A stretch of 64,000 nt of DNA from Candidatus Micrarchaeota archaeon (GTDB lineage Archaea; Micrarchaeota; Micrarchaeia; Anstonellales; Bilamarchaeaceae): assembly GCA_018812715.1 (NCBI GenBank), contig JAHJCT010000011.1, positions 114,614-178,613 on the forward strand, read 5' to 3'. Shown one piece after another: positions 3,683 to 62,094 of the stretch (the first letter of the stretch is position 1; each line of letters starts with the position of its first letter). Made by a program: the position numbers and the translations under genes. The notes beneath the pieces are model-generated. The model was not told the DNA's origin and did no database searches. It was given only the letters and a program-made list of their open reading frames with translations.

Positions 3683-4525
3683 TCAGAGAGCTGCGAGGAG
3701 CAATCCAAGCATACCAAGCAGAAAAGCAATCAAGCTCATGTTCCTTGCAAATTTGAATGCTCTTTTTGTTAGTATCTTGTAACAGATCACAGCTATTAGC
3801 CCATCTGCAGCTACTATGAGAACCAATGATATCGAACTTGCACACAAACCAAATGAGAATGGCAATATGCTAAGAGGTATAAATAAGAGGTAAAGTCCTA
3901 TTGCAACCAAAAGTGATGGCCTTTCTCCGATAACTATTGGAAGTGTTTTTGATTTTCTTGCTTTCATATCGCCTTTCATGTCCTGAACAGATTTGATTAT
4001 CTCTCGTGCCAAGCCTGCCACAAATCCTAAGACTGCAAGAACTAATACAACGACTGAAAGATCTCCAGATACAACAAAATTACCGAATATAAAAGGAATC
4101 GCCATTGTCAATGCAATATATATATTTCCAACTAATGGCATATCCTTGAGTTTCCAGTTGTACGTCACAGCAGCAATATTAAAGAACAAGGCAATGACAA
4201 AAGCGATATTATTTATGAAATAAGCCAAAACAGTTGATAGTACTAACATTAGTATGGAGAAACGAAATGCAAATGCAGGACTTATTGTTCCTTTAACTAA
4301 TGGCCTATTTTTCTTATTGAGTTTATCAGTTTCAATATCAAAATAATCATTCAATGCAAAAGAGCCCATTTCACTGAACATTGGAACCAATAGAGAAAGT
4401 ATGATGTAGTATTCAAGCGGCGGTAGCGTTCCTAAAGTTATTATCTCTGCTACCAACACAGCCAGAGCCAGCAGTACTGCATGTTCAAATCTAGTTAACT
4501 TTAACACTTCCATCATACCAATCAA
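3683..4525 (-). CDS. UbiA-family membrane prenyltransferase (DGGGP synthase-like)
   Basis: Polytopic membrane protein with NDYFDIETDKLNKKNRPL, the UbiA Asp-rich NDxxDxxxD motif. 280 aa fits archaeal digeranylgeranylglyceryl phosphate synthase size, but the specific substrate is not determinable. Confidence 0.6.
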   Translation of the reverse strand: MIGMMEVLKLTRFEHAVLLALAVLVAEIITLGTLPPLEYYIILSLLVPMFSEMGSFALNDYFDIETDKLNKKNRPLVKGTISPAFAFRFSILMLVLSTVLAYFINNIAFVIALFFNIAAVTYNWKLKDMPLVGNIYIALTMAIPFIFGNFVVSGDLSVVVLVLAVLGFVAGLAREIIKSVQDMKGDMKARKSKTLPIVIGERPSLLVAIGLYLLFIPLSILPFSFGLCASSISLVLIVAADGLIAVICYKILTKRAFKFARNMSLIAFLLGMLGLLLAAL

Positions 4526-4668: not shown

Positions 4669-5148
4669 ATGAGAGGCAAAATTTTGAAACTTCCATGGGA
4701 GTTAGATCCATTAGACATGTCAATACTTTTTCATCTTAGAACAAATTCCAAAACACCAATCAAGAAAATGGCAAAAGATCTTGGCATGCATCCGAACACC
4801 CTCATCCAGAGAATAAAAAAAATGGAAAAGGAAGGCGTGATAAAGAAATATTCTGCTGATATTGATTATACTAAGGCTGGTTTTGATCTGCATTTGATGG
4901 TTCTGATAAAAGTAAAAAGAGGCCGTGTTGCTTTAGACCAGCTCAAAGAATTAACAAGAATTGCTGAAATAGAATCAATCTATGCAACCACTGGTCTTTG
5001 GGATGCAGTTGCAATGTGCAGGGTAAGGAACCGCGAACATCTTCTTGGTGTTATAGAGAAAATAGGCGACCATCCCATTGTGCTGAAGACCTCCAGCTCT
5101 ATTGTTCTCTATTGCTACAAATCTAATGATGATTATAATCCATTCTGA
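4669..5148 (+). CDS. Lrp/AsnC family transcriptional regulator
   Basis: 159 aa with HTH (TPIKKMAKDLGMHPNTLIQRIKKMEKEGVIKKYSA) plus C-terminal RAM-like domain. Confidence 0.85.
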   Translation: MRGKILKLPWELDPLDMSILFHLRTNSKTPIKKMAKDLGMHPNTLIQRIKKMEKEGVIKKYSADIDYTKAGFDLHLMVLIKVKRGRVALDQLKELTRIAEIESIYATTGLWDAVAMCRVRNREHLLGVIEKIGDHPIVLKTSSSIVLYCYKSNDDYNPF

Positions 5149-5157
5149 GGTGTTAGA

Positions 5158-5631
5158 ATGAAAATTGATGGAATAGATAAAAAGATTCTTGCCCAGCTTG
5201 TGGAAAATTCTAAAATTATGTCAAAAAAATTATCCAGAAAATTAAGGATACACCCAAATACACTTTTGCAAAGGCTGAAGAAGCTGGAGAAGGAAGGCGT
5301 TCTTGTAAAATATTCGGCAGTAGTTGATTATAGTAAATTTGATAAGCGGCTTCAGGCAATCATTTTCCTTAATATAGAGATGATGAAGGACTGGGAAACT
5401 ATCCTCAGACCATTATCCAAACTTCCAGAAGTCGTTTCTTTTATTCTAGTAACTGGGGAGCATGATGTACTTCTTATTGCCAGACTTAAGGATGAAACAC
5501 ATCTTGCCAATTTCCTGAGAAGATTGCAGACTAACAAGGTTGTGACAAAAACAACAACCCATTTAATTCTCGATTACTACAAACAACCTTACGAGTATAA
5601 TCCTATTGGTGAAGAACTTAGATTTTCCTGA
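5158..5631 (+). CDS. Lrp/AsnC family transcriptional regulator (tandem paralog)
   Basis: 157 aa, KLSRKLRIHPNTLLQRLKKLEKEGVLVKYSAVVDY... 9 nt downstream of the previous Lrp gene. Confidence 0.85.
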   Translation: MKIDGIDKKILAQLVENSKIMSKKLSRKLRIHPNTLLQRLKKLEKEGVLVKYSAVVDYSKFDKRLQAIIFLNIEMMKDWETILRPLSKLPEVVSFILVTGEHDVLLIARLKDETHLANFLRRLQTNKVVTKTTTHLILDYYKQPYEYNPIGEELRFS

Positions 5632-16194: not shown

Positions 16195-16854
16195 CTATTT
16201 AAAAGGAGAAATAGTACTCATCAGTTCTTGAAGTTTTTGGCTAAGCTCAAGCGACCCTTCCTTTAAATCACTTATCAATTCTCTTACTTTATCAACATCT
16301 GGTTTGAAAGAATACTCTAATTTCTCTTTGGCAAAAGTCAATATCATCCAAATCCCAAACCCAATTCCGCCTGCTATCATACATATTTCCTGGGATCCTG
16401 TTTGCATTCGAGATGCTATAAGAGATGTAATAATCGATATACCAGCAAATATAGCACTAATGGTCGCTGCTACATTCAGCATTCTATCCCACACATTAAC
16501 CCTTTTATCAATCCCCTCCAATTCCTCAAAATTTATTGTCGAGATATCCTCTTCAAGTGCGGTAATAATTCCAGGTATTTTTTCTTGTGCTTTTTGAGCA
16601 GCTCTACTCACATCTCTTATTCCACCCAATTGTGCTAATACCTGGGCATCATTTATTATTCCCAATTCTCTTCCAGCTGCGAAACGTCTTACACATATTC
16701 CATTAATTAGTGGACAGAGTTCATCTGCGCGATCCTTTGCCCTTGCAAAAATTCGACTCCTGGCTCCACTTCCCATGAGACCTCTTGCATGTTCAATTCT
16801 AATTAGGGGGATTTCCACGTCTTGTATTTTTTGGACTATCCTGGAATGAATCAT
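16195..16854 (-). CDS. hypothetical membrane protein
   Basis: 219 aa with two hydrophobic helices (NVAATISAIFAGISIITSLIA and ICMIAGGIGFGIWMILTF) flanked by charged helical regions. No family assigned. Confidence 0.4.
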   Translation of the reverse strand: MIHSRIVQKIQDVEIPLIRIEHARGLMGSGARSRIFARAKDRADELCPLINGICVRRFAAGRELGIINDAQVLAQLGGIRDVSRAAQKAQEKIPGIITALEEDISTINFEELEGIDKRVNVWDRMLNVAATISAIFAGISIITSLIASRMQTGSQEICMIAGGIGFGIWMILTFAKEKLEYSFKPDVDKVRELISDLKEGSLELSQKLQELMSTISPFK

Positions 16855-16947
16855 TCTACCAACTCTCTAAACTGAGCATTGGAAAGCTCAAACTTCTGAA
16901 AAATGGACTTTCACTTGAAATGCTGTTTCAAGATTTTCCATTAAAAA

Positions 16948-17050
16948 TGGACTCGGGGGGAATCGCACCCCCGGCCTCTCCCATGCCAAGGGAGCGCTCT
17001 ACTGCTGCCCAATTTCTTTTTTATCTAAGAATTTTCTGAGCCACGAGCCC
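16948..17050 (-). tRNA. tRNA-Ala (anticodon GGC) with ~30-nt insertion (probable non-canonical intron) in the D-arm
   Basis: Minus-strand read: GGGCTCG-TG-GCTCAG[AAAATTCTTAGATAAAAAAGAAATTGGGCAGC]AGTAGAGC-G-CTCCC-TTGGCAT-GGGAG-AGGCC-GGGGG-TGCGATT-CCCCC-CGAGTCC-A. Acceptor stem pairs with the G3:U70 Ala identity pair, anticodon loop is TT-GGC-AT, discriminator A. Exact intron boundaries uncertain. T-loop has unusual G at 55. Confidence 0.65.
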
Positions 17051-17053: not shown

Positions 17054-17278
17054 TTATGAAGGTGAGATAAATGTTACTGAATCTCCACGTACGAGAACAG
17101 TTCCTACTCCACGCTTCACTTCTCCATTCACCATCTGCTCAGCTTTTTCAAGCACAAGGTTCATGTGAACATCGTAAGCTACCATAACTCCTCTAAACTC
17201 ATAGCCCCCTTTCATACCGACGATAACCGTGTTGTTTAGGGAACTGTTCAATACATCAAATGGTCTTCTCTCTGGCAT
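17054..17278 (-). CDS. Sm-like archaeal protein (SmAP/LSm)
   Basis: 74 aa, RPFDVLNSSLNNTVIVGMKGGYEFRGVMVAYDVHMNLVLEKAE matches Sm1/Sm2 motifs. Its stop codon sits 3 nt upstream of the tRNA-Ala 5' end. Confidence 0.85.
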   Translation of the reverse strand: MPERRPFDVLNSSLNNTVIVGMKGGYEFRGVMVAYDVHMNLVLEKAEQMVNGEVKRGVGTVLVRGDSVTFISPS

Positions 17279-29465: not shown

Positions 29466-29856
29466 TCCCTTTATCTCCATCAACTTCTACTTTTTGTCCA
29501 TTTTTCAGAATTTTGTAAATATCAGTTTCTGGTTTATCCACCATTGGTATTTTCGAGATTATTGCACCTACCGCGATTATTGGCTCTGCACTAATATTGA
29601 TTATTGCTGCAGGTGCCTTGCCATTTTTTGCAAGCTGGAGCATCACATAAGAACCCACTGTTGATCCTTTACCATTTGGAAAAACAAGAATCTTCCCGGC
29701 AATATTTTTTCCTTTTAATGGATGCCATGGCTCTATTATTTCACCGCTCGTTGGATCGACTCCACCAAGAAATCCAAGTGGTTCGTTGCTGATAAGAACC
29801 TCTCCGGAACCTTTTCCACGTGATATTGAACGACATTTGATCCCCATGATTATCAC
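29452..29856 (-). CDS. phosphomevalonate dehydratase small subunit (AcnX swivel domain, DUF126)
   Basis: 134 aa GKG-rich swivel-domain protein ([21 protein letters not shown]...) immediately downstream of, and overlapping, the DUF521 large subunit. Confidence 0.7.
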
Positions 29857-32916: not shown

Positions 32917-34014
32917 TCACGTATTTTGTTCGAATATCATCAGATCCATCCCGTGATCTTTGTCAATTCTCACTTTTTGTGTTTTTATAAATTTGAATAA
33001 CCCCTCTATCCTGTATTTTATCTGATCTAATGAAAGCCGTGGTCTTTCTATGATTCTTCGTATCTTTTCAGACATCTCAGGTCCAACTATGAATGGGTTT
33101 TCTTCTGCAACAATAAGTTTTGCACCTTTTTTCATTCTAAAACCTACTGCTAGCAACGGTGCTATAAAAGACGTGTAAGCAGTAGCATTGAACATCAATA
33201 CGGTATTGAATTCTACATCCTTTGGAAGGTCATCACTATGTTCTATATCTCCGCAAATGAATTTTATTTCTGAACCATTATTCACAACTAATGGCGTTTC
33301 AAGTACTGAAGCCATCTTTCTTGCAAACCTAATCATTTCAGCTGAAGAATCAATACCTACGTATGTGAATGGTTCTTTTATCATTCTATGTAATTGATGT
33401 AAATTTCTTCCCGATCCACAACATAAATCTAGTATTGGTTCTCGAATATGTTCTCTTACCTTCATTAGTGCCATATGCTGAGCTCTGTAATGCCCACTTT
33501 CTAACATGTAATCATCAAATTCAAACGCAATTTCATTCCATTGATTTGTAAATGAAGCAAAAGAACAATTGTAATGATGAAGTGGCATGTACAAATCTAA
33601 AGATTTGTCCCATCCAAACGGCACTTCTTTTATGTTTAGTCCATCTTCCTTGAGTTTGTAGGTCAATATACTCATCATTCTTCTTGCCAGTTCTGGTTCT
33701 GCTGAATTTTCACTTAAATGAGCAAAGGCAGCAATAACTATCTCCTCTACACCAAGCATTTGACGTGATCTTAGAATTGCTTCTTTTACATCATCCAAAA
33801 GATCAAGTCCATTATCTCCTTTTTCAACACAAACAAAGACAAGCAGGGCATTTTCTGCTTTAGTCTCTTTATTTGAATCATCTAGAATTGGCAGGACTTC
33901 TCCAAGTCTCTCTCTTAGTTTATCTTCATTCCGTTTTCTTCCGCCGCCATTTTTTCCGCTCTTTGCACCTGCTTTAATGCGAAGATTCTGTGCATGCATA
34001 AACAACATTTTCAT
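32917..34014 (-). CDS. fusion protein: ThrRS-editing/DTD2-like N-terminal domain + class I SAM methyltransferase
   Basis: N-terminal about 150 aa (MKMLFMHAQN...ALLVFVCVEKGD...IVIAAFAHLSENSAEPELA...VPFGWDKS) resembles the archaeal ThrRS N-terminal editing domain/DTD2. C-terminal half has MTase motif I ILDLCCGSGR preceded by the YDxxM..GH block shared with two paralogs. Confidence 0.5.
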   Translation of the reverse strand: MKMLFMHAQNLRIKAGAKSGKNGGGRKRNEDKLRERLGEVLPILDDSNKETKAENALLVFVCVEKGDNGLDLLDDVKEAILRSRQMLGVEEIVIAAFAHLSENSAEPELARRMMSILTYKLKEDGLNIKEVPFGWDKSLDLYMPLHHYNCSFASFTNQWNEIAFEFDDYMLESGHYRAQHMALMKVREHIREPILDLCCGSGRNLHQLHRMIKEPFTYVGIDSSAEMIRFARKMASVLETPLVVNNGSEIKFICGDIEHSDDLPKDVEFNTVLMFNATAYTSFIAPLLAVGFRMKKGAKLIVAEENPFIVGPEMSEKIRRIIERPRLSLDQIKYRIEGLFKFIKTQKVRIDKDHGMDLMIFEQNT

Positions 34015-41930: not shown

Positions 41931-44900
41931 ATGCGCGCATATCTTTTATTATTATTGATGATTTTAGCAGGTTTATCTTTTTCTATCGACGTTTCAAGCT
42001 GTGAGAATATCACAGCACCTGGTGTTTATGAACTAACTACCAATCTTGTAGGTGCACCTAATAATGCCTCTGAAGTATCGAGTATTGACTGGGCATGTAT
42101 AAAGATAGCATCTTCAGACGTAGTCTTTGACTGTATGGGATATACAATAACAAACGACGGAACTCTAGCTGCTGCAGGTATCGTTGTTAATGGTTCTAGT
42201 GGAATTAACTATCCCAATGTAACAGTAAGAAACTGCCCTTCGATTACACAATATTACTATGGTATTTACATTTATCGAACTAATGAAACTACCGTCACAA
42301 ATGTAACATTGTATAACAACACATATTCATTTGCTTCCCTTATATCTGATTATCTTAATCTCACAAATAACACAGCTTACGATCAAACTGCTGGTTTTGA
42401 GATTATTGGTTGTGCTGGATGCAGTCTTATTGATAATGTTGTTTACGATATGTCAGATGTTGGTATTGCTAGCAGTGGCTGTTTTTATTGTAATTTTATA
42501 AATAATAGTATGTATGACGGCTCAGATTATGGATTTTATATTGAGCAAACTGGTGATACTAATTTTATCAATAACACAGTTTTTGATATCTCTAATGATG
42601 CATTTCATATCAGCGGTGCTAGTGATTGCAACTTCATAAACAATACAGTCTATAACAGCCTCGATGGTATGGACCTTTATATGACCAGCAATATGACTAT
42701 CATCAATAACTCATTTTATAACAACAATGAAGATGCTATTGAAATTTATGAAGGTGGCGATAACAATTTATCAAATAACGAACTCTATAACAATGAACGG
42801 GGCCTCAGCATATACAATGCTTCTGCAACACGTGTAATCGGAGATCATTATTATAACAACAGCATAGATATCTTCGTTAATGGAACAGGAATAACAGTCG
42901 ATCTTTCTGGTGTTATCTTTGATAATGATGCTGGAACACTGGCAGATTACACAAACATCTCTTTAACTGATACAGTTGCATCCATCTACACTATAGATCA
43001 CGCAGTTCAACCCGCAGCACTACCGCCCAATATGGCGTCATTTGAAAATAAATTTGTAAACATTACAAATCTAACAAGCGGGGTTTCAATAGATACTATT
43101 ATCTGGCACTGGACAGAGGCTGAAACTGCTGGTTATACTGAAGCTAACTTTGAATTATGGAAATATAATGTTTCAGGTTGGGCCGATACTGGTGCTACCC
43201 CCAATACCGCAACTAACACATTCACTTTAACAAATCTAAATCCGGCAAGCACTTATGCAATATTGCAAACAAGTGTTTGTCCAGTTATAAGTTCAAGCGG
43301 AACATATGCCCAACTAGGCGATCTTGTTGGCGCCCCCAATTCTGCAAGTCCAGTTTTCGGTTCTGTATGTGTAAAGATAACTGCATCTAATGTTGTCTAT
43401 GATTGTAATGGTTATAGTATCACTAATGACGGAACAGGTTCTGCTATGGGTATAATGATTGGCAGAACATCAGATCTTAATCCAGAAATAACAAATGTTA
43501 CCGTTAGAAACTGCCCAAGCGTTTCGCAATATACCTATGGTATTTATACTCGCGGAGCTAATGATAGTTTCATAATTAATTCTACAGTTCACAACAATGC
43601 CGGCTATGGTACTTTCTTTATGCTCAGTAATGATATCACTGTTATCAATAGCACCGCACATAGCAATGGACTTGATGGATTTTATACCTCTACAAGTTCC
43701 ACATTTACTAATTTCTCCAATAACACAGCTTATAACAACACTCGTAGTGGTTTTGTTCTTTTCCCGGGAGCTAATAGTACAGTTTTGGATAACACTGCAT
43801 ATAATAACACGGAATATGGTTTCTACTGGAGAATGAGTGGTGGTAGTAACGCCATCAATAACACAGCACACAACAACGGGCTGAGTGGCTTCTATCTTTA
43901 TGATTCAGATAACAATACTCTTTTGAATAATACAGCGTACAATAATTCAAATGAAGGTATTCTTCTCGTTGATTCCAATAACAATGAATTCAATAATAAT
44001 GAAGCATATGAAAATTATGTTGGTATCTCAACTTATCATTCAGACTACAATACTCTGCAAAATAACTCGGTTCATAACAATGTAATGACTGCCATTGTTG
44101 TAAATAGTTCTTCTTATAACAATTTGACTAACAATACTATCTATAATCATCGCGGAGCGATGGGGCCAGCATTTGGAATTTATGTTGAAGCATCATCATA
44201 TCAAAATCAAATTACAGATAATAACCTCACTAATAACACGGTTTGTATAGTCCTGGGGGCAACCAGAACTGCATTTAATGGCGGTAACAATTGGATAGTA
44301 AATAACACTATGACTGATGCATATATGGGTGTTTTCCTTTACCTAGCTGATAATACATCTGTAATAGAAAATCATATCAGCAATGTTCCGGAGACGAGTG
44401 CAATTATCGTTTTAGGTTCTGATATTTATGGCATGTTTGGCGGCGGATATCTAGGCGCTTACAACAATACTTTCATTGGCAATGTAATAGAAAACAGTAC
44501 TGGTTTCATTTTCTACATGGCAAATAACAATGTAATTCAGTCAAATATTATAGCAAATGCCACTGGCTACTTTAATTGGTCTGACGCAGGGATTTTAGAA
44601 AATTATACTGGTTTTTACTTCTATGAATCCAATTATTCAAATCTGTCTGACAATTTAGTATACAATCTTTCTGGTTACGCACTCCACATAATCGATTCAG
44701 AATCTGTTAATGCCTCTGATACACATGTTTATAACAATGATAGAGGTGCTCTGTTTGTTTCTGCTTCAGTAGCAACAAATCTTTACTTATCAAACTTCAC
44801 AATAGATAATCCATCAGGCAACTTCCAAAATTATACAAGCATCTCACTTACTGATGCTGTTGATGGTGACAGTAAATATACTATTAACTGGTCATTCAAT

Positions 44901-47900
44901 TCAACTGCTTTACCTGCCAATTACTTTTCATTTGAAGGGAAATATGTAGATATAAGTCAATACAAAGGAGGAGTACCTAGTATAATAGATTCAATTACAT
45001 GGACTTGGCTAAATTCAGAGTTGTCAGGATATGATGAATCCAGATTTGAATTATGGCAATATAATGGAACTTGGACCAATATGGGTGCAACATTGGATAC
45101 TGGAGCAAACGCATTGACAGTAACAAACCTGAATCCAGAAAGTACCTATAGTATACTACAAAGTAATCTGTCTACATGTATGCTGATCAATTCTTCAGGT
45201 TATTATCAACTTAATACTAATCTTCAGGGTGCTCCAATAAATGCTGCCCCTCTAACCGGAACTGCTTGTATAAAAATAAATAGTTCAGATGTAGTCCTTG
45301 ATTGTAATGGATTTACTATTACAAATAATGGAACTGCTGGAACTACAAGAGGTATTCTAGCGGTAGGTCCAATCTCAAACATAACAATTTTCAATTGTCC
45401 AGGAATTGCAAATTATACCAATGGTATTGAGGTCGTTGAATCTAATGATACCTTAGTTCTAAATAATACGGTCTATGAAATTGGCACCGATGGTTTAAGT
45501 GTAACAAACTGTACCAACTCTGAATTTATCAACAACACAGCTTACAATATTACAGATGATGCCTTTGACTTTTACAACTGTACCAATATTACAGTGATAA
45601 ATAATACTGGCTATTTGATATTTAGTGGTGACATCTTTGAAAATAGTCTTTGCAACAATTGTGATTTCATAGATAACAGTGCTCTTGGAGGATTCGCCGA
45701 TGCCTTTGACTTTAATTATTGTAATAATACAAACCTCATAAACAATACCTTAAGTTTTGCTTTAGATAATCTTGTGGAAGCAACCTATTCTATAAATTGG
45801 ACCGTAATTAACAATACACTTCACGATGCTGGAAACGATGCCTTTTTCTTTGGCGATGCTGTCAATATTGTTTTCCTAAATAATACTGTTCATGATATAC
45901 AAAATGAATTCTTTGATATTGAACTTTGTAGTAATTGTAACCTCACCAACAACACAGGTTACATGTCATATGCTGGGGGCGGACTTAATCTTATTGATTC
46001 CAATATCATTACAGTAACAAATAACACTTTCTATGATGTTACTCTTGATGCTTCATATGCAGAAAATTGTACTAATTGTAATTTCATAAATAACACCGCT
46101 TATAACTCCACTGATGCAGATATATTTGATTTCGACAGATGTACTAACCTTACAGTAATGAATAATAGTGGTTTTCTAACACTTAACAGCAACATCTTTG
46201 AAACTAGCCGCTGTAATAATTGTGATTTCATAAATAATCTTGCTATGGGGGCAATAATTAATGCTAGTAGCGCCTTTGACTTTGCTGCTTGTAATAATAC
46301 CAACATCATAAACAATAATGTAACCTGGAGTATTAATGATCTTGTGCAAGTAAGTTATTGTATAAACTGCAGTGTAATCAATAACACACTTTACTATGCT
46401 GGGGGAGATGGTTTTGCTCTTGGTAAATCTATCAATTTTACTCTTTTAAATAATACAGTCAATGGTGTTATAGATGACGGAGCTGATATAAAAGAGTTAA
46501 ATGATAGTATCATTAGAAATAATTTATTATATAATATATCTGATAACGGTATTGAATTTTCTGAATGTGATAATTGCACTCTAATCAACAATACTATTTA
46601 TAATGTAAGTATTAATGGCTATTACTTAGATGAGATGACTAATTGTGTTCTTATCAATAATACAGCCTATGATATTGGAGACGATGGATATGATGGTGGA
46701 GATTCAAGCAATACTAATTTCACAAATAATTTAGCTTATGATACTGGAGGTGACGGTTTCCAATTTGAAGACTCTACTAACATCATTTTCCTTAACAACA
46801 CAGCATACGACAACCCTGAGTTTGGGTTCAGCCTAAACAACTCGCCGAGCAACACTTTTGTCAATAACACAGCGTATAATAATGGATATGCTGGGTTTGC
46901 TGCATTCCTTGGCTCTAATGGCAATAATTTCACCAGAAACCTGGCTTACAACAATACTGGTTTTGCACTCCTTGAAGTTTATAATACCAATCTGGATTCC
47001 AATATTGCGAGAGATAGTGAGGGTTATGGGGTCCAGGTAATTGGTCTTATGCTAGGCATACCATTTGTTGATGATCTAGATGACGTTGGTTTCCTTTTCT
47101 ATGAATCCGATAGTTCTATTGTATTCAACAATAGTGCTTACAATTTCACAGGAAACATGAGCGGAGATGAAGAATCATATGGTTTTGTTGTTTACTTAAG
47201 CGACAATAACAACTTCACCAACAATCTTGCACATACTACTAATGATTCCGGCTTCTTATTGCTAAATTCATCTTACAATAATCTTACCAATAATACTGTA
47301 TATGACAACCGGGAAGCTGGAATAGCTCTTGAAGAGAATTGTACTTGGAATATTCTAACTAACAACACTGCCCACCATAATGGCCTTATCGGTATTAATC
47401 TACAAGATGGTCCTTTCGCAAACGGAATATATGGAACAAATGCTTATAGTAATGGCTGGTGTTCCTTCCAAATTTTTGATGCTGATACGAATGGCTTCAT
47501 TAACAATACAGTGACTAATGACACTGGTTTCATTGTCATATTTTCCAATGATACTCAAATCCTTTCAAATACTGTAGCCAACAGCAGTGGAAGTGGAGTA
47601 AGCTCTTATATACCAACAATTGATGATAGTGGTGTTGTTTTGATATACTCTAACTACACTAATATATCTGATAATGTGGTTTACAATTTAACCAACAACA
47701 CATCTCATGCTTTCTATCTTGATCAAAGCAATAACAATCTTCTCATAAATAATACAGCTTATATTAATGGAGAAACAGGTTTCTATGTGCACAACTCCCA
47801 TTACAATACCTTAGTGAATAATACTGATAACAACAACCATGAAGGTTTTATTATTGACAGTGGCTCGTCCTTTAATATTCTCTATAACAACACGGCCATG

Positions 47901-48446
47901 TTTGACAATGGTTATCAAGTACTTGGTGCTGCATTCAACAATTCACTGATTGATAATACGGCTTATTATATAGAAGACAATGGTTTCAGTGTAAAAAATG
48001 GTGGCTTCAATACTACATTGATAAACAATACTGCATTATTCAGTGATGAAGCAGGCTATCTCATTATGATGTCTGATAATAACACGCTTTTCAATAACAC
48101 TGCATATAACAACTATGCCAATGGTTTCGAAATATTTATGGCTGCGGATAATCACCTCATCAATAACACTGCATACGAAAATAATGAATCAGGTTATTCA
48201 ATTGGCATGAATCTAGTTCCAAACTACTTCTTCAACAACACCGCATACGACAACAACTTCACTGGTTTTATGATCATGCAGAATAATAATAGTGATTTCC
48301 AAAACAATACAGTTCATGACAATGGTCTCATGGGCTTCTTAATAGTCTTGGCTGGCCACAACAATTTCACTAACAATACAGCTTATGACGGCAATGTAAG
48401 TGGTTTCTGGCTGGGTATGGATTCACGTTACAATGTTTTCACATAA
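41931..48446 (+). CDS. giant secreted right-handed beta-helix (NosD/PbH1-like) repeat surface protein, N-terminal 2171-codon segment
   Basis: Signal peptide. Dozens of ~22-aa NNTAYNN..GF.L... parallel beta-helix repeats organised into three super-modules, each opening with C...(S/A)PG.Y.L..NL.GAP.NA(S/A). Ends at a single in-frame TAA, see findings. Confidence 0.7.
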   Translation: MRAYLLLLLMILAGLSFSIDVSSCENITAPGVYELTTNLVGAPNNASEVSSIDWACIKIASSDVVFDCMGYTITNDGTLAAAGIVVNGSSGINYPNVTVRNCPSITQYYYGIYIYRTNETTVTNVTLYNNTYSFASLISDYLNLTNNTAYDQTAGFEIIGCAGCSLIDNVVYDMSDVGIASSGCFYCNFINNSMYDGSDYGFYIEQTGDTNFINNTVFDISNDAFHISGASDCNFINNTVYNSLDGMDLYMTSNMTIINNSFYNNNEDAIEIYEGGDNNLSNNELYNNERGLSIYNASATRVIGDHYYNNSIDIFVNGTGITVDLSGVIFDNDAGTLADYTNISLTDTVASIYTIDHAVQPAALPPNMASFENKFVNITNLTSGVSIDTIIWHWTEAETAGYTEANFELWKYNVSGWADTGATPNTATNTFTLTNLNPASTYAILQTSVCPVISSSGTYAQLGDLVGAPNSASPVFGSVCVKITASNVVYDCNGYSITNDGTGSAMGIMIGRTSDLNPEITNVTVRNCPSVSQYTYGIYTRGANDSFIINSTVHNNAGYGTFFMLSNDITVINSTAHSNGLDGFYTSTSSTFTNFSNNTAYNNTRSGFVLFPGANSTVLDNTAYNNTEYGFYWRMSGGSNAINNTAHNNGLSGFYLYDSDNNTLLNNTAYNNSNEGILLVDSNNNEFNNNEAYENYVGISTYHSDYNTLQNNSVHNNVMTAIVVNSSSYNNLTNNTIYNHRGAMGPAFGIYVEASSYQNQITDNNLTNNTVCIVLGATRTAFNGGNNWIVNNTMTDAYMGVFLYLADNTSVIENHISNVPETSAIIVLGSDIYGMFGGGYLGAYNNTFIGNVIENSTGFIFYMANNNVIQSNIIANATGYFNWSDAGILENYTGFYFYESNYSNLSDNLVYNLSGYALHIIDSESVNASDTHVYNNDRGALFVSASVATNLYLSNFTIDNPSGNFQNYTSISLTDAVDGDSKYTINWSFNSTALPANYFSFEGKYVDISQYKGGVPSIIDSITWTWLNSELSGYDESRFELWQYNGTWTNMGATLDTGANALTVTNLNPESTYSILQSNLSTCMLINSSGYYQLNTNLQGAPINAAPLTGTACIKINSSDVVLDCNGFTITNNGTAGTTRGILAVGPISNITIFNCPGIANYTNGIEVVESNDTLVLNNTVYEIGTDGLSVTNCTNSEFINNTAYNITDDAFDFYNCTNITVINNTGYLIFSGDIFENSLCNNCDFIDNSALGGFADAFDFNYCNNTNLINNTLSFALDNLVEATYSINWTVINNTLHDAGNDAFFFGDAVNIVFLNNTVHDIQNEFFDIELCSNCNLTNNTGYMSYAGGGLNLIDSNIITVTNNTFYDVTLDASYAENCTNCNFINNTAYNSTDADIFDFDRCTNLTVMNNSGFLTLNSNIFETSRCNNCDFINNLAMGAIINASSAFDFAACNNTNIINNNVTWSINDLVQVSYCINCSVINNTLYYAGGDGFALGKSINFTLLNNTVNGVIDDGADIKELNDSIIRNNLLYNISDNGIEFSECDNCTLINNTIYNVSINGYYLDEMTNCVLINNTAYDIGDDGYDGGDSSNTNFTNNLAYDTGGDGFQFEDSTNIIFLNNTAYDNPEFGFSLNNSPSNTFVNNTAYNNGYAGFAAFLGSNGNNFTRNLAYNNTGFALLEVYNTNLDSNIARDSEGYGVQVIGLMLGIPFVDDLDDVGFLFYESDSSIVFNNSAYNFTGNMSGDEESYGFVVYLSDNNNFTNNLAHTTNDSGFLLLNSSYNNLTNNTVYDNREAGIALEENCTWNILTNNTAHHNGLIGINLQDGPFANGIYGTNAYSNGWCSFQIFDADTNGFINNTVTNDTGFIVIFSNDTQILSNTVANSSGSGVSSYIPTIDDSGVVLIYSNYTNISDNVVYNLTNNTSHAFYLDQSNNNLLINNTAYINGETGFYVHNSHYNTLVNNTDNNNHEGFIIDSGSSFNILYNNTAMFDNGYQVLGAAFNNSLIDNTAYYIEDNGFSVKNGGFNTTLINNTALFSDEAGYLIMMSDNNTLFNNTAYNNYANGFEIFMAADNHLINNTAYENNESGYSIGMNLVPNYFFNNTAYDNNFTGFMIMQNNNSDFQNNTVHDNGLMGFLIVLAGHNNFTNNTAYDGNVSGFWLGMDSRYNVFT

Positions 48447-50816: not shown

Positions 50817-51374
50817 TCAAGAAATTTGTTCTTTTAGGATAAAATAAAGATCAAAATAATCACGTGGCTGGTTTCTTGTTATGGCAGCCCTGAGTTTTTC
50901 TGCTATGAGTTCATTGAAATTAAGAACATTTATTTCAAAATCCAAATTATAGAAATTATGAACTTTTTTCCTATCTATTTTGATGTGAATTGATGCTTTT
51001 CTATTTGCATCTAGAATAATATAATTGTTATTTGAAAAATAACTCTGATAAAAGATTTTAATTCTTACAAAATTCCTGCTTTCATTTTCATATTCTATCC
51101 TTCTGAAATGTTTTTTGTCATTTTTAACAATTTCTTCTATTTTTGCCTTAATCTGGGTTATTGGAATAGTTGCTGTAAAATCTGCATCTTCAGAAAGACG
51201 CATGTGGTCTAAGAAAATTTTATTCAGGGCAGTTCCACCTTTGAAATATATCCCTTCAAAATCTTTCAGATGATAGAGCAAGATTGTTAGGAAATAATCT
51301 TTTTCCAGATATATAAGATTATATCCAGTTTCAGCTGCAATATTCCGAAGTTTTGCTTCATTTATCCGATCCAT
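50817..51374 (-). CDS. AbiEii-family nucleotidyltransferase toxin (type IV toxin-antitoxin, DUF1814)
   Basis: IYFKGGTALNKIF is the GGTAL signature of the AbiEii/DUF1814 nucleotidyltransferase. 185 aa, downstream of and overlapping the putative antitoxin. Confidence 0.6.
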   Translation of the reverse strand: MDRINEAKLRNIAAETGYNLIYLEKDYFLTILLYHLKDFEGIYFKGGTALNKIFLDHMRLSEDADFTATIPITQIKAKIEEIVKNDKKHFRRIEYENESRNFVRIKIFYQSYFSNNNYIILDANRKASIHIKIDRKKVHNFYNLDFEINVLNFNELIAEKLRAAITRNQPRDYFDLYFILKEQIS

Positions 51375-51907
51375 TTTTTACTTTCCCTCTTTGATGCGAT
51401 TAAAAAATCATGGTCCTTTATTTTCCTTTTAACTGTTTTTCCTAATTTTCTCACTCGTCTAAACTTGAACACAGAGCCAAGTATTTTCATTGTCCCTTGT
51501 TTTTTTGTAGAAAATACATCTATAACTGTGGGCAACTGATCTATCAACCCCCAATAATTTGCAGCTGCTTTGCCACCTATGTAGTAATCCTTTCCATTGA
51601 ACATTTCATCTGCTATGATGAATGGGTGTTCTGCCCAGCCTTTGTAGGCCTTTATCGGAATCAAGTAATATTTTTCCTTGTTTATTCTCTCAATTCTTCT
51701 TTTTTTCCTTAGCCTGTGTACGTAAACATTCAATTCATTGTCAGATGTAAAAAACTTTCTGATGTCCTTCTTTGAGAAAAATCTTTTTTCCTCTAGTTCA
51801 AGGTATGAAACTACTTCAATTTCTTTGTTTGACAAACCTTTGATACGATGCTTCGTATCAAATTTTGGCGCAGTTTTTTGCAATCCTTTGATTTTCTTCT
51901 TAGTCAT
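51362..51907 (-). CDS. AbiEi-like antitoxin/transcriptional regulator
   Basis: ...YYIGGKAAANYWGLIDQLPTVIDVFS... matches the AbiEi C-terminal domain pattern (Y.sl.sAl.y.GL.dq.p..i.v). Basic N-terminus. Gene order antitoxin then toxin with 13-nt overlap. Confidence 0.5.
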   Translation of the reverse strand: MTKKKIKGLQKTAPKFDTKHRIKGLSNKEIEVVSYLELEEKRFFSKKDIRKFFTSDNELNVYVHRLRKKRRIERINKEKYYLIPIKAYKGWAEHPFIIADEMFNGKDYYIGGKAAANYWGLIDQLPTVIDVFSTKKQGTMKILGSVFKFRRVRKLGKTVKRKIKDHDFLIASKRESKKWIG

Positions 51908-56532: not shown

Positions 56533-59500
56533 ATGCGATTTACATATTTTGTCTTGATTTTGGCTTTAATTAGCTTGGGATTTGCCATCTCACCTTTGGC
56601 CATTGATGTTCTAGAACCTGCTGGTGATATAGAAATAAACCAAAATAGAATATACAATGTAACTGTTAATGTATCATGTAATGTTGGAGATTGTGGAGAT
56701 GTTAATGTCTCTTTGGATAATTTTCCAACTTCATGTAAAGCAATCTTAGATCTAGGTCAAAGTATTGGCGATGGAGAGTATACTATATACCCAGCCAATC
56801 ATCCTTCTGGAATAGATGTTTATTGTGATATGACCACTGATGGCGGGGGTTGGACCTTGGTATTTGCAGGTATGGGAAGCACCTCAACTTATGCTTCTAC
56901 CTGGTCAGGCTGGTTTTCTGAAGGTTCAACCACAGAAATAACTGATAAAAGCACCGAAGGAAAAAGTCCAGCATATGATAGTGTTACAGTGAGTACTTTA
57001 ATGCTGGAGTCAACTTATGGAACAGACGGAATAATTATCGCAGATTTAGATCAAACTTATTCCAGTCTTCTGGATCTGGTTGGACCTGATCCAGGGTATA
57101 ATGATGGAAGCACTTCCTGGGATAATGGATTAAAAGGGCCATTTACTGCCAATTATCCTCATACTGGTGATCATTTTGTTAATGATTGGATTAGGATATG
57201 GGTTGGAGATGGAGATTATGATGAGCAGGATAGAGTTGTTTTTGCTACCCAACTTGGTGAAGGGGACTGGTCTGGTCATGATAATCCCGGTGCAATTGGC
57301 GGCGAATACCAAACAGCAAGAGATGGAAGTGATTGGTACTACGTATGGGTGAGAGAAGAAGGCACATATGAATCGTATTCTGATGTCATTACGATAAATA
57401 ATGGCGAATCCGAAATCGTAATCTTTTCAGTAAATGCAACTGTTATCGGAAATTACACTTATTATGCTTATGCAGAAGAGGTTTCTAACCCATCTGTCAA
57501 CACAACTAGTAGCACCTGGAATGTAACTGTATATCCCCCTATACAGGTTATTTTTTCATCTCCAGGAAAATATGTTTCTGGCAATGATGTTACCGTAAAT
57601 CTCACCACAAGGTATTTTGTGGAAGGTCTAGACAGTATCTGGTGGAATAATGGAACAGCAAACCAGACATATTCAGGAGAAACTACTGACTATTATCCAG
57701 ATGGGTTTTATACATTTACTGCATATGCCAATGACAGTGCTGGTTATCTGGCCTCAACAATACTAAATTTCAACGTCAATATATGTGGTTTGGAACTTGA
57801 TTCTGATTATACACTTGAATATGATCTTGATTGCAGTGAATATTCTGAAGCTGCAGTTATTATTACTGAAGAAAATGTTACTCTTGATTGTGATGGCCAT
57901 TCAATAATCGGTCCTGGTTATGATACAGGAGTTTATTCCGAGTATGATAATACTATTATACAAAATTGCATTATAAGTAATTTTAATGAAGGTATACAGT
58001 TCTATGATTCTTCTAATGGCTTTATAATCAACAATACTTTTGACTCAAATTATTATGGTCTTTGGCTTGGGGAAAACTCAGATAATAATATAGTTACTTA
58101 CAATACTTTCACTTCAAATGATTATGGATTTTATTTAGAATTTGCCGATAACAACCAAATAGGGCATAACACAGTTGATATGTCGTATTCTAATTTTGGT
58201 GATTCTTCCTGTCCCTTTGTTTATGCATGGAATGGCGAAGAGTATGACTTCATAACTGATTTTTCCAGCAGTGGCAGATTAGCAGCTTCGAGTAAGGGAA
58301 CCCCAAGGGTCTACTATGACTATGTGAAACTTTCAAATGAACAATTAAAACCAGAATCTGGTTTTTACCAAATTCAATTAACAGAAGAATACGATGAAAT
58401 CTCATATGTCGATGAGCTCACATTAATTACAATAGACCATCCATCTGATTATGATGTTTACACTGGATTTACTATGGATGATAAAAGCGATATTTATACA
58501 GTTAGCAAAACTTTATTGCCAATTGAATCATGTGTGGATGAATCAGGGCAGGATTGTACGTCTGAAGTTTCTACCAAGGATGGCATATATACTGAAAAAG
58601 CAGATGGTGTAAATAAAAAAACATTTGAGCTTGATCTTGGTGATCTTTCAGAAGATGTTAAATTAGTTATAACTTATGCAAAAGCTCTCGACCTTGATCT
58701 GGATGACGAGACAAGATCAATTCAGATAAAAAATTCAGAAGGTGTTTGGACTGATTTATATACTCATTCCGAGTTAATCTCTTCTCCAAATGCCCCAAAT
58801 ACCTATGTTCTTGATCTTACTGGGTTATTGGTCTATGATAATTCAGTAAAATTAATACTTCCAGAAGGATTAATTGACTATCTTGCAGTTGATACTTCGC
58901 CACAACAAGAAGTAGTTGTAAACGCATATTCTCCTGATTCTGCAAATCTACACTACCATGGTTATTCTGAAGATATTAGCAACGATGTAGTTGATTATGA
59001 TTATTATTCTCTTGCATCACTTCGAAATAACGAACCCACTGGTTACTTCACTAAATATGGAGATGTTAACGAACTCCTTACTTCAACTGATGATATGTAC
59101 GTTATCATGCACGATGGTGATGAGATTTCAGTTGAATTCCAATACAATGCTCCAGAAGAGGGGATGACAAGAGATTTCCTTGTTTACAGCTGGTATTACT
59201 ACAAACCTGCAAAGAAATTTTTAGATGATTATACTGTTGATCCATTACCATTTGTTGGCATGAGCACTTATCCATATCCAGAAGGAGAAACTTACCCACA
59301 AGATGAAGAACATCAAGCTTATCTTTCGGAATGGAATACCCGATATTACGAAAGACCAATGAGAATGGGCGGCTCATTACCGTATTCCTTCAATAATACA
59401 GTATTTGAAAATACTATTATAGGAAGTAGTTCTGGTTATGGTTTATATCTATACGAGGAAGATTCAACATTGTTGCTAAATAACAATATCTCAGATGTAG

Positions 59501-62094
59501 AGATTGGTATTTATCTAGAGGATTCAAGTTATACTTTAATTAGTGGAAACAATATATTCGATGTCGAAACAGGTATGTACCTTGGTGATTCTGATTATAA
59601 TGAAATCTATGAAAATGAAATAGAAGCTTTTGAGGGCAGAGGAATTAATGTTAGGTACTCTGATTACAATGAAATCTTTGATAATATACTCTTTGTAGAC
59701 AGTACCGATAATTGTGATTATGGCGGACCTGGCTGTGGAGGAATTTATGTCGTTGGCTGTTCTTATGTGAACATAATCACTGACAATGACATTACTTCCC
59801 TTTATGGTCATGGTATTGCTATCGGTGGTTGTGGCGAAGACAACGACTTCATTGGCAATACGCTAACTATAACTAACGATGAAAGCAACTACTACGCATT
59901 CTATGCCTTTGAAGGTGGTGATGGCTGTTCTTACTACAATACTTTCTTACACAACAGAATTTTCAGCGATTACTGGATCTATGATGATTGTGATGGAAAT
60001 GACTATAGCGATGATTATTCAGGAAATATCTACTATTTTGCAGATGCAACTCCAAGCTGGGAAGTGTACGATGATCTTTATGATACTACAGACCCAGAAG
60101 ATGGTTGGGCAGATGAAGGAGATTTTGTACCATTTAGTTATGGTACTTTAGAAGATGAAGATCTGTGGTATGATTATGGTGAAGATTGGCATCCAGCACT
60201 AACAGATGACCCATCCATACATTCAGTTGATGTTGAATTAGTTTCTCCTGAAGATGAAGCACAAGCGTTAAGTCCGATTATTTTTACTTACATACCATCA
60301 GTTGGCTGGGAAGGCCAAACTATCGAAAATTGCGATATAACTGTTCAAACTGTTGAAGGAGGAGAAGTAACTGAAATAGATCCAGGTGAACAAGATGGTT
60401 TAGTTGCTTTATGGCACTTTAACGATGATTATCTTGATTCATCAGGAAATGGCCATGATGGAACTCCTGAAGGTGATACTTATCTCACTCCTGATTCGCG
60501 ACTTGGCGATGGTGCGGTATTTCTAGATGGTGATCTTGATTATGTATCAGTGCCTGATTCAGGTGATTTTGATGATGGCCCTGATCTTACCTTTGCTGCA
60601 TGGGTACATTTTGATGGAGAATCTACAAATTGGAATAGAATAGTTTCAAAACGTCTAGATTGTTGTGATGGAGAACCGGGTTGGGAGATCACTCTCGATG
60701 GTGGTGATGGCACAGATATTTATGTATCTGATAATGGCTGGGGAGGATTTATCAACGGCCAGTGTGTTGACAGCTGGACTGATGGTAATTGGCACCATGT
60801 TGCTGTTACATACGATGAAGATACTGCATCAGTATATTGCGATGGTGAGTTCAAATTTTCAGGAGCAGTTAATTCAATAAGTCCAAATGACCAAGATTTA
60901 CTTCTCGGCAAAATTGAATCAGAAGATAGTACTAGTTGGGTTGGTGCTATGGATGAAGTTGCCATCTGGAATCGTGCTCTCTCAGAAGATGAAGTGGAAG
61001 AACTTTATACTAGCTATACTTACTATACTGACTCTTCCTCTTCAATAGATGAAGGTGAAGAAAATACATTCACAATGGAATTACCTGATGGTGAATATTA
61101 TTGGAGTGTTGAATGTACTGATAATCTGGATATAACTGGAGAATCGGAAACATGGCTTTTAACAGTTGGTGAAGAAGAACCTCCAGAAGAAGATGGTAAT
61201 CCATCTCCTTCAAAACCACAACTTTCAATTGATCTAGATAGTTCCTGTGAAGACAACACAATAACCGTTACAAGCAATGGCGATGAAGTTGCCGGCGTTT
61301 CAGCAACTGTCCTTAATTACGATACTATGACCAACATTGCAAGTGGAAACACAGATGCAAATGGTGAACTGAGCTTCAGTGATTGCGGCAAAACTGTAAA
61401 AGTAAGTGCTTCAAAATCAAATTACAAGTCTGCAACTGGCATATACACACTTGATGACTGCTGTGAAGAAGAACAAGTTGGTTGTATAGATGATTCAGAT
61501 TGTCTTTCAACAAAAGAATGTGTTAATGGTGCCTGCGTTGCTGTTGAATGTGAATGTGGCACAGTTCAAAACCACCAATGTGTTCCATATGACTGTTGCT
61601 TAGATTCAGACTGCAATGAAGGTGAAGTTTGTACTGAACATGCGTGCGTATCGGTTCCTGTTGAGCCAGAATGCACTTCTAATGATGACTGTGCTTCAGG
61701 AATGGAATGTAGTAATGGAATTTGCATTGAAGTCGAACCACCTGAGGATCTTGAAGATTTAGCGACCCAAACAATAAATACTGCTCAAGACGCAATAGAT
61801 ACTGCCAAATCAGAAGGCAAAGATACAAGTGAGGCAGAAGCAAAGCTTGCAGCAGCATGGGCCGCATATGAAGCAGGCAATTTTGAAGAAGCAAAAAATC
61901 TTGCAGAAGAAGCAAAGCAATTGGCACTCAATGCAGCTGCACAACCAGCAAATCAAACAGGAACAGAAATTGAAGTTACTGAAACTCAACAAGACAATAA
62001 TGTCGTCTTTGTAACTGTTTTCTTACTATTGGTATTAGCAGCATTATGCATTTACTGGGTTGTCTCACGAAAACCTGCTAAGAAGAAAAAATAA
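56533..62094 (+). CDS. giant mosaic surface protein: signal peptide, fibrinogen-related domain, beta-helix repeats, LamG/ConA-like lectin domain, Cys-rich modules, TM anchor and KKKK tail
   Basis: 1853 aa. SGIDVYCDMTTDGGGWTLVFAGMG is the fibrinogen C-terminal-domain hallmark. NosD-like beta-helix repeats (NCIISNFNEGIQFYDSSNGFIINNTFDSNYYGLWLGENSDNN...). LamG-like block (LDGDLDYVSVPDSG...LTFAAWVHFDG...WHHVAVTYDEDTASVYCDGEF). C-terminal Cys-rich module homologous to the 48447..50114 tail. TM VVFVTVFLLLVLAALCIYWVV followed by SRKPAKKKK. Confidence 0.65.
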   Translation: MRFTYFVLILALISLGFAISPLAIDVLEPAGDIEINQNRIYNVTVNVSCNVGDCGDVNVSLDNFPTSCKAILDLGQSIGDGEYTIYPANHPSGIDVYCDMTTDGGGWTLVFAGMGSTSTYASTWSGWFSEGSTTEITDKSTEGKSPAYDSVTVSTLMLESTYGTDGIIIADLDQTYSSLLDLVGPDPGYNDGSTSWDNGLKGPFTANYPHTGDHFVNDWIRIWVGDGDYDEQDRVVFATQLGEGDWSGHDNPGAIGGEYQTARDGSDWYYVWVREEGTYESYSDVITINNGESEIVIFSVNATVIGNYTYYAYAEEVSNPSVNTTSSTWNVTVYPPIQVIFSSPGKYVSGNDVTVNLTTRYFVEGLDSIWWNNGTANQTYSGETTDYYPDGFYTFTAYANDSAGYLASTILNFNVNICGLELDSDYTLEYDLDCSEYSEAAVIITEENVTLDCDGHSIIGPGYDTGVYSEYDNTIIQNCIISNFNEGIQFYDSSNGFIINNTFDSNYYGLWLGENSDNNIVTYNTFTSNDYGFYLEFADNNQIGHNTVDMSYSNFGDSSCPFVYAWNGEEYDFITDFSSSGRLAASSKGTPRVYYDYVKLSNEQLKPESGFYQIQLTEEYDEISYVDELTLITIDHPSDYDVYTGFTMDDKSDIYTVSKTLLPIESCVDESGQDCTSEVSTKDGIYTEKADGVNKKTFELDLGDLSEDVKLVITYAKALDLDLDDETRSIQIKNSEGVWTDLYTHSELISSPNAPNTYVLDLTGLLVYDNSVKLILPEGLIDYLAVDTSPQQEVVVNAYSPDSANLHYHGYSEDISNDVVDYDYYSLASLRNNEPTGYFTKYGDVNELLTSTDDMYVIMHDGDEISVEFQYNAPEEGMTRDFLVYSWYYYKPAKKFLDDYTVDPLPFVGMSTYPYPEGETYPQDEEHQAYLSEWNTRYYERPMRMGGSLPYSFNNTVFENTIIGSSSGYGLYLYEEDSTLLLNNNISDVEIGIYLEDSSYTLISGNNIFDVETGMYLGDSDYNEIYENEIEAFEGRGINVRYSDYNEIFDNILFVDSTDNCDYGGPGCGGIYVVGCSYVNIITDNDITSLYGHGIAIGGCGEDNDFIGNTLTITNDESNYYAFYAFEGGDGCSYYNTFLHNRIFSDYWIYDDCDGNDYSDDYSGNIYYFADATPSWEVYDDLYDTTDPEDGWADEGDFVPFSYGTLEDEDLWYDYGEDWHPALTDDPSIHSVDVELVSPEDEAQALSPIIFTYIPSVGWEGQTIENCDITVQTVEGGEVTEIDPGEQDGLVALWHFNDDYLDSSGNGHDGTPEGDTYLTPDSRLGDGAVFLDGDLDYVSVPDSGDFDDGPDLTFAAWVHFDGESTNWNRIVSKRLDCCDGEPGWEITLDGGDGTDIYVSDNGWGGFINGQCVDSWTDGNWHHVAVTYDEDTASVYCDGEFKFSGAVNSISPNDQDLLLGKIESEDSTSWVGAMDEVAIWNRALSEDEVEELYTSYTYYTDSSSSIDEGEENTFTMELPDGEYYWSVECTDNLDITGESETWLLTVGEEEPPEEDGNPSPSKPQLSIDLDSSCEDNTITVTSNGDEVAGVSATVLNYDTMTNIASGNTDANGELSFSDCGKTVKVSASKSNYKSATGIYTLDDCCEEEQVGCIDDSDCLSTKECVNGACVAVECECGTVQNHQCVPYDCCLDSDCNEGEVCTEHACVSVPVEPECTSNDDCASGMECSNGICIEVEPPEDLEDLATQTINTAQDAIDTAKSEGKDTSEAEAKLAAAWAAYEAGNFEEAKNLAEEAKQLALNAAAQPANQTGTEIEVTETQQDNNVVFVTVFLLLVLAALCIYWVVSRKPAKKKK

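Follow-up and report, generated by a model that had tools for sequence, protein, structure and literature searches.

The strict form of the bulge-helix-bulge (BHB) motif of archaeal tRNA introns, hBHBh', has both flanking helices, and relaxed forms have one; a relaxed substrate of the HBh' type requires a broad-specificity endonuclease. The closest described systems include Candidatus Micrarchaeum acidiphilum ARMAN-2, in which, according to the parts of the published account cited here, 56% of the tRNA genes are disrupted and an epsilon2 splicing endonuclease (EndA) cleaves relaxed motifs (Fujishima et al. 2011, PMC3239211). D-loop introns, including one with an HBh' motif at position 20b/21, have been cleaved in vitro by the broad-specificity EndA of Aeropyrum pernix (PMC3241643, PMC5829648). 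Here we analyzed a stretch of 64,000 nucleotides (nt) from a Candidatus Micrarchaeota archaeon (contig JAHJCT010000011.1, positions 114,614 to 178,613), hereafter called the window, and describe a tRNA-Ala(GGC) gene on its minus strand (16948 to 17050). Our results make it very probable that this is a functional tRNA gene of a DPANN archaeon, interrupted in the D-loop, between tRNA positions 15 and 16, by a 31-nt protein-spliced intron of the BHB type.

The interrupted gene and its BHB motif

Read from 17050 down to 16948, the gene is GGGCTCG TG GCTC AG AAAATTCTTAGATAAAAAAGAAATTGGGCAG CAGTA GAGC G CTCCC TTGGCAT GGGAG AGGCC GGGGG TGCGATT CCCCC CGAGTCC A, with the insert standing between AG and CAGTA. 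The initial annotation had proposed a tRNA-Ala(GGC) whose D-arm is split by an AT-rich insert of some 30 nt and which begins 3 nt behind the stop codon of an Sm-protein gene. That description holds: the 7-bp acceptor stem, the G3:U70 pair, A73, the anticodon GGC (16985 to 16987, also read by ARAGORN) and the 5-bp T-stem are all present, the insert measures exactly 31 nt, and the Sm stop codon TAA is followed by AAC and then by G1. The sequence itself, a splice-aware alignment to intron-less orthologues, and the BHB junction delimit a 5' exon (17036 to 17050) with tRNA nt 1 to 15, which comprise the acceptor strand GGGCUCG, U8 and G9, the D-stem strand GCUC, and A14 and G15. The intron (17005 to 17035; pre-tRNA nt 16 to 46, AAAAUUCUUAGAUAAAAAAGAAAUUGGGCAG) has a G+C content of 19% within GC-rich exons, a contrast also seen in relatives. 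The 3' exon (16948 to 17004; splice-aware alignment, ARAGORN, and cloverleaf covariation) supplies tRNA nt 16 to 73, that is, CAGUA, the D-stem 3' strand, the anticodon arm, the variable loop, the T arm, the acceptor 3' strand, and A73; CCA is not encoded. An independent assembly (Logan SRR2540949, L001) is identical to the locus as far as its contig extends.

Once pre-tRNA nt 16 to 46 are removed, 72 nt remain; ARAGORN calls this sequence tRNA-Ala(ggc), and its minimum free energy (MFE) fold is a perfect cloverleaf. In the precursor, the 5' strand of the D-stem (G10 C11 U12 C13; 17038 to 17041) forms a central helix with the intron bases G41 G42 G43 C44 (17007 to 17010), a mimic of the D-stem 3' strand with equivalents in relatives; all four pairs form, and the helix is also contained in the unconstrained MFE fold. 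A 3-nt bulge adjoins the helix on either side, the two lying on opposite strands: A14 G15^A16 (17035 to 17037), with a predicted cut after G15, and A45 G46^C47 (17004 to 17006), with a predicted cut after G46. The position of each cut within its bulge follows from established knowledge of archaeal EndA, and the resulting junction reproduces the D-loop of two orthologues, L013 and L049. In the folds, the remainder of the intron (17011 to 17034) consists of an inner helix of 2 bp (A17 A18:U39 U40), an A19.A38 mismatch, a further 5 bp (UUCUU, 20 to 24, with AAGAA, 33 to 37), and an 8-nt loop. An outer exon-exon helix is absent, with G9 and A48 unpaired, and the motif is therefore classed as relaxed HBh'. 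The suggestion that folding would reveal a BHB motif across the insert is thus borne out as to its presence at the required junction, but not in the form of a full hBHBh'.

At -34.6 kcal/mol, the BHB conformer is stabler than a cloverleaf whose 38-nt D-loop is left open (-32.7 kcal/mol). Among 200,000 shuffles of the insert, a central helix with 4/4 pairs at a mature-compatible junction arose in 1.1%, and one that also had at least two inner pairs arose in 0.14%; the match lies far outside chance expectation. A competing solution, with cuts after nt 18 and nt 43 and a 78-nt product with a 13-nt D-loop, was rejected for a mismatch in the central helix and for a product that matches no orthologue; our first BHB scan ranked solutions by the summed central, inner, and outer pairs, and the HBh' solution stood low there only for lacking an outer helix. 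A cloverleaf that draws on the insert for its D-stem (GCUC/GGGC, as in the MFE fold) was rejected for leaving 12 nt between the D and anticodon stems. No better cloverleaf with the inserted bases emerged, which the initial annotation had named as one outcome that would count against an intron: ARAGORN, run on the precursor with anticodon-loop introns allowed or not, calls nothing.

We propose that the precursor in this genome would arise by read-through from the Sm gene and be released by RNase P. The D-stem 5' strand G10-C13 would pair with intron G41-C44 and not with its usual partner, G22-C25; the splicing endonuclease would cut in both bulges, an RtcB-type ligase would join G15 to C47, and the D-stem would then re-form, giving the 72-nt tRNA with the D-loop AGCAGUA, to which CCA would be added. 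The endonuclease and ligase steps are inferred from what is known of archaeal tRNA splicing, from the epsilon2 EndA of ARMAN-2, and from D-loop substrates of the HBh' type. What can be read directly is the geometry of the motif, where exactly the junction lies, which tRNA results, and an arrangement that is conserved in relatives.

Several points weigh against this reading. The case for splicing of the tRNA-Ala(GGC) precursor comes from structure and comparison. The MFE fold (-39.1 kcal/mol) adds A14:U40 and G15:U39 to the central helix and so closes the 5' bulge, and the inner helix next to the central helix extends for only 2 bp before the A.A mismatch. An endonuclease of strict specificity would not be expected to cleave the precursor efficiently, because the outer helix is absent. 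No gene for EndA, RtcB, or an RNase P protein was found among the open reading frames (ORFs) of the window in Pfam scans of most of them (three long ones, of 2171, 1853, and 891 aa, lay outside the scans); and a second, intact copy of tRNA-Ala(GGC) could stand elsewhere in the genome, beyond the window.

Intron turnover and rival explanations

With the NYN-domain protein encoded just upstream of Sm as a probe, we collected 45 loci of GTDB species representatives, almost all of which bear the label Candidatus Micrarchaeota. A tRNA-Ala(GGC) gene lies downstream of Sm on the same strand in 30 of these GTDB-species loci, and a pattern scan of metagenome contigs yielded four further Sm-linked copies. 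The splice-aware alignment was made on the 650 nt downstream of Sm. Its dynamic programming mis-split five genes (L027, L023, L031, L033, and L045), of which L027 and L023 were corrected by hand and kept; L045 has no settled assignment, and the covariation alignment was made without L031, L033, L045, and L009. That alignment has 17 distinct spliced sequences and 99.7% paired cells; both sides change in 9 of its 21 pairs, and G3:U70 is the same throughout. Judged by these sequences, the exons evolve as a working tRNA.

The insert is absent from 12 orthologues, which are intron-less and 72 nt long (L003, L005, L006, L012, L013, L014, L016, L017, L022, L025, L026, and L043) and which score 60 to 66 bits on the Rfam tRNA model (RF00005). 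The closest comparison is with L013 (GGGCTTGTAGCTCAGCAGTAGAGCGCTCCC...; 65.7 bits), which differs from the exons of the window only by A9 in place of G9 and by a compensatory U6:A67 in place of C6:G67. The junction demanded by the intron-less orthologues falls between ...GCUCAG and CAGUAGAGC..., exactly where the BHB geometry places it, and the spliced product is a normal tRNA-Ala; the non-canonical D-loop intron that the initial annotation favored is thereby upheld.

Inserts at exactly 15/16 occur in nine further species (L004, L007, L011, L019, L020, L027, L047, L048, and L050). They span 21 to 172 nt and are mostly unrelated in sequence, although L019 and L027 share a stretch and L004 and L050 share a 3' end; a BLAST search with the intron of the window against the window and all orthologue loci found no homologue. 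Every 15/16 insert has the same architecture, its last four paired bases matching the D-stem 5' strand and being followed by a 3-nt bulge. The central helix is complete (4/4) in 8 of the 10 inserts, counting the window, and has 3/4 pairs in the other two; the intron bases on its 3' side in relatives are GGGC, GAGC, GAGA, or GAUU, and in L027 the D-stem strand GAUC is accompanied by the intron end GAUU, a compensatory change.

Other sites in the same gene are also occupied. Inserts lie at 17/18 in L009 and at 18/19 in L015 and L049, canonical 37/38 introns are present in some species, and T-loop introns at 58/59 or 59/60 are present in others, most of the latter having an outer helix of 3 to 5 bp and several forming a full hBHBh'. 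In all, a tRNA-Ala(GGC) gene carries 0 to 3 introns at six positions. Extreme cases are L009 (a 353-nt gene with introns of 141, 42, and 99 nt in the D-loop, at 37/38, and in the T-loop), L020 (304 nt, with a 172-nt D-loop intron and a 60-nt T-loop intron), L046 (230 nt), and L031; up to 80% of the gene is intron. Sister taxa differ in intron state on a quickly built NYN+Sm tree of low resolution. The orthologue set thus offers a dense presence/absence series for the study of intron turnover in one gene.

Two further observations concern these loci. In four of them (L006, about 4780 to 4840; L015, about 4120 to 4185; L017, about 4810 to 4866; and L023, about 4850 to 4905), a copy of tRNA nt 1 to 15 lies 45 to 60 nt upstream of the real gene. 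It reads GGGCTCGTAGCTCAG, or GGGCATGTAGCTCAG in L023, where it fits the acceptor of that species; it stops exactly at position 15, the intron site, and is followed by a 9-bp hairpin (TTTGGACGG..CCGTCCAAA) and TCGCTCC. The copy may be a relic of a partial duplication or of an intron gain or loss event. Separately, a motif family (GTTTCCAGTCT / CCCAGTTTCCAG / GTTTTCAGTCTCG) occurs in the T-loop intron of L008, in the anticodon-loop intron of L031, and in trailer spacers of L003, L005, and L011, and is absent from the window. Its presence in both introns and trailer spacers could mean that they share a small element of repetitive or mobile nature.

The gene of the window escapes standard tools. 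ARAGORN finds no tRNA gene and no tmRNA in the whole window, and Rfam at gathering thresholds finds no match in it. A relaxed Rfam search of the locus gave a weak match to Tymo_tRNA-like (18 bits) and a subthreshold match to tmRNA (RF00023; 20 bits, against a gathering score of 47) in which only the acceptor and T arm are aligned. A tmRNA identity was rejected on this score, on the 294 model positions skipped, and on the lack of a tmRNA call by ARAGORN. When the relaxed search was extended to the whole window in a search for other interrupted tRNAs, it returned this locus only. A split or permuted tRNA gene was rejected too, both exons being contiguous and collinear within 103 nt. Since the locus is invisible to ARAGORN and at the curated thresholds of Rfam, genomes of this lineage would appear to lack tRNA-Ala(GGC) unless a BHB-aware search is used, with consequences for completeness estimates and codon-usage inference for DPANN metagenome-assembled genomes.

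The rejection by standard tRNA finders would also be expected of a pseudogene, that is, of a tRNA-Ala(GGC) inactivated by a random D-loop insertion that is never removed. The lack of a homologue of the insert in the other orthologue loci examined and the weakness of the inner helix next to the central helix would fit this explanation as well. We nevertheless consider it unlikely: the exons carry no damaging changes and are the same as those of functional-looking orthologues except for G9/A9 and one compensatory pair, and BHB geometry at the exact junction arose in only 0.14 to 1.1% of shuffles. Moreover, inserts of the same geometry stand at the same site in nine other species, and this is the sole tRNA-Ala(GGC) at the conserved Sm-linked position.

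Less probable still is an insert that stays in the mature RNA, where it would enlarge the D-arm or stand as an extra hairpin of a structurally aberrant but functional tRNA or tRNA-like RNA. The MFE fold, in which an insert hairpin is closed by GCUCAG/UUGGGC with the acceptor, anticodon, and T arms intact, lends itself to this idea, as do the weak matches to the tmRNA and Tymo_tRNA-like models. However, that fold puts 12 unpaired nt between the "D-arm" and the anticodon stem and gives up the conserved GAGC strand, a strand that orthologues either keep unchanged or alter in a compensatory way, and the Rfam matches are far below gathering scores. In addition, close relatives have no insert or have unrelated ones of 21 to 172 nt, so the insert is not conserved as part of a mature RNA. 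Two origins of another sort are scarcely credible, namely an artefact of assembly (or a chimera) and a self-splicing intron of group I or II. Apart from the AT-richness of the insert, so unlike the exons, nothing specific speaks for either, whereas the independent Logan assembly has the identical sequence, introns of group I or II are far longer than 31 nt, no such Rfam family was matched, and AT-rich introns within GC-rich exons occur in relatives.

The elbow, the transcript, and neighboring genes

The G at position 55, which had been noted as unusual, is real. The T-loop reads UGCGAUU (16961 to 16967), with G in place of U at position 55 (16966), and the Rfam alignment assigns A to position 18 (17003; normally G18) and G to position 55. 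In place of the canonical elbow (G18 G19 with U54, U or pseudouridine (Psi) 55, and C56), this tRNA has the D-loop AGCAGUA, with A18 and G19, and the T-loop UGCGAUU; this is a deviation within tRNA and no ground for excluding it from the tRNAs. The T-loop UGCGAKU is conserved in 24 orthologues, always with A-G at 18-19, and nine others have UUCRAAU with G-G. No clean mixed state of 18 and 55 was seen, the one gene assigned to neither state being the poorly aligned L045, so that A18 appears as the covarying tertiary partner of G55. The A18/G55 and G18/U55 states are interspersed on the NYN+Sm tree, again at low resolution, which suggests repeated switches or allele replacement. We found no description of an A18.G55 pair in the literature searched, and the covariation provides a small, clean natural experiment on the tRNA elbow.

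We tentatively entertain a broader reading, possible but doubtful at present, in which 15/16 is a recurrent landing site of BHB introns in Micrarchaeota and in which, independently, the clade-wide A18.G55 is a natural covarying alternative elbow pair in a cytoplasmic elongator tRNA that is unable to carry Psi55. The landing site is suggested by at least 10 species with 15/16 inserts, each insert imitating the D-stem 3' strand at its end (GRGC/GAGA/GAUU followed by A-N). Candidate routes of gain and loss are reverse splicing with recombination, or small mobile hairpin elements such as might be represented by GTTTCCAGTCT, which is common to the introns and 3' trailers of some relatives. If 15/16 is such a site, the locus is a natural series for how archaeal tRNA introns come and go.

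Upstream of the tRNA lies the Sm/LSm gene (17054 to 17278, minus strand; 74 aa; Pfam LSM, E=4e-20), whose stop codon is 3 nt from tRNA nt 1. The cotranscription of the two genes proposed in the initial annotation is plausible in this genome but is not a conserved trait: the order of Sm and tRNA-Ala(GGC) is kept in more than 30 species, but the spacers between the Sm stop codon and tRNA nt 1 range from 3 nt in the window, the shortest, to 406 nt in relatives. Orthologues with spacers of 30 to 50 nt usually have a TTTAT-type box 26 to 37 nt upstream of +1, which suggests that tRNA-Ala has its own promoter there. In the window, the only TTTAT-type box begins at -21, within Phe-Ile codons of Sm, too near for a start site to be placed upstream of +1; read-through from Sm is plausible here, as a promoter would not fit into the 3-nt gap. 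A sigma-70 promoter and terminator scan was set aside as inapplicable to archaea, its only match being the T-arm plus the T-run.

The 3' trailer (16899 to 16947, from sequence and folding) consists of a T-run directly behind the tRNA (16943 to 16947), a 37-nt hairpin (UGGAAAAUCUUGAAACAGCAUUUCAAGUGAAAGUCCA; 16904 to 16940), and, behind a second AGUCCA, another T-run (16899 to 16903), which is the likely end of the transcript. The hairpin thus repeats the tRNA 3' end AGUCCA, and in the window AGTCCATTTT is confined to these two sites. A 19/20 match to the trailer (GTCCATTTTTCAGAA...) at 29496 to 29515 on the plus strand was judged to be due to chance; it has no tRNA-like context and lies within the coding region of an AcnX swivel-domain gene on the opposite strand. 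The window holds one reduced unit of what, in relatives, are one to four tandem modules 3' of tRNA-Ala, each a hairpin of 35 to 90 nt closed by UGGAC/GUCCA (L003, at 4899 to 5160, L005, L006, L011, L012, L013, L017, L019, L023, L046, L047, and L050). Each module ends in a copy of the tRNA 3' end of its own species, AGTCCA, or TGTCCA where the tRNA ends in TGTCCA, so that the two covary; the inner stems vary in sequence yet always pair, and a T-run follows the last module. Within 450 nt 3' of tRNA-Ala, relatives show an enrichment of about 24-fold for such hairpin units, and Rfam recognizes no family in the trailer modules of relatives. The units may mimic the acceptor stem, serve as a signal for processing or termination, or be att-like remnants. 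A direct repeat of the 3' part of the T-arm together with the acceptor 3' strand (GGCGGGTGCGAGTCCCCCAGAGTCCAAT) lies some 75 nt downstream of the 3' end of the tRNA in L026; an integrative element targeting the tRNA 3' end would leave such a trace.

Several other genes of the window deserve mention. An ORF at 32917 to 34014 (minus strand) combines tRNA-Thr_ED, the archaea-specific editing domain of threonyl-tRNA synthetase (E=1.5e-20), with a class I methyltransferase domain and is a free-standing editing-domain fusion. The ORF at 50817 to 51374 (minus strand) has an AbiEii nucleotidyltransferase toxin domain (E=5e-23), and the upstream ORF that overlaps it (51362 to 51907, minus strand) is a candidate antitoxin; the two would then form a type IV toxin-antitoxin pair in a DPANN genome. 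The two giant ORFs (41931 to 48446, 2171 aa, and 56533 to 62094, 1853 aa; both on the plus strand) probably encode large surface proteins, which are typical of DPANN archaea. The 219-aa ORF at 16195 to 16854 has no Pfam match, and matches to "Serglycin" were rejected as artefacts of the GS linkers used to concatenate ORFs for the Pfam scans.

Comparison with known systems

With regard to its elbow, the closest likeness is to tRNA-Pyl, which is functional without the canonical G18.Psi55 contact and also has G at position 55 (PMC1851642). tRNA-Pyl, however, lacks G18G19 and T54-Psi55-C56 and has a shrunken D-loop (PMC1851642), whereas the tRNA-Ala described here keeps G19, U54, C56, and A58; its change is confined to the 18/55 pair, which goes from G.U to A.G.

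With regard to the intron, the D-loop introns of Aeropyrum pernix pre-tRNA-Thr(UGU) and Methanopyrus kandleri pre-tRNA-Glu(UUC), the latter a relaxed HBh' at 20b/21, are alike in location (PMC3241643, PMC5829648). They differ in that the present intron lies on the 5' side of the D-loop, at 15/16, with a central helix that is built from the 5' strand of the D-stem, and in lineage, being from Crenarchaeota and Methanopyri, whereas ours is from DPANN. The multi-intron tRNAs of Thermoproteales (Sugahara 2008 and Fujishima 2010, as summarized in the cited part of PMC4090602) resemble the orthologue set in that short BHB introns are rapidly gained and lost at numerous positions, at most three to a gene; here, by contrast, the turnover takes place within one orthologous gene across DPANN species. 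The non-canonical sites named in that same part of PMC4090602 are 20/21, 22/23, 25/26, 29/30, 30/31, 45/46, 53/54, 56/57, and 59/60, with 3/4 given separately for Thermoproteales; 15/16 is not named there, in a list that ends with "etc.", and no search aimed at the exact position was made.

A further comparison is with ARMAN-2. It belongs to the same phylum and, in the parts of the account cited here, is described with protein-spliced introns that occupy non-canonical sites and with relaxed BHB motifs (HBh' or hBH), a likeness that extends to the relatives of our locus in that several introns may occupy one gene (PMC3239211). Its 59/60 T-loop introns have counterparts in orthologues of this tRNA-Ala, whereas the introns given for ARMAN-2 in those parts lie at 37/38, 53/54, and 59/60 (PMC3239211) and the one described here lies in the D-loop at 15/16 and is of the HBh' and not the hBH type. 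The locus offers a test of which relaxed HBh' substrates an epsilon2-type endonuclease accepts. Introns of this kind are already known in the phylum, and our case is a further example and not a new phenomenon; what it adds to the catalogue of non-canonical intron sites is the D-loop position 15/16 in Micrarchaeota.

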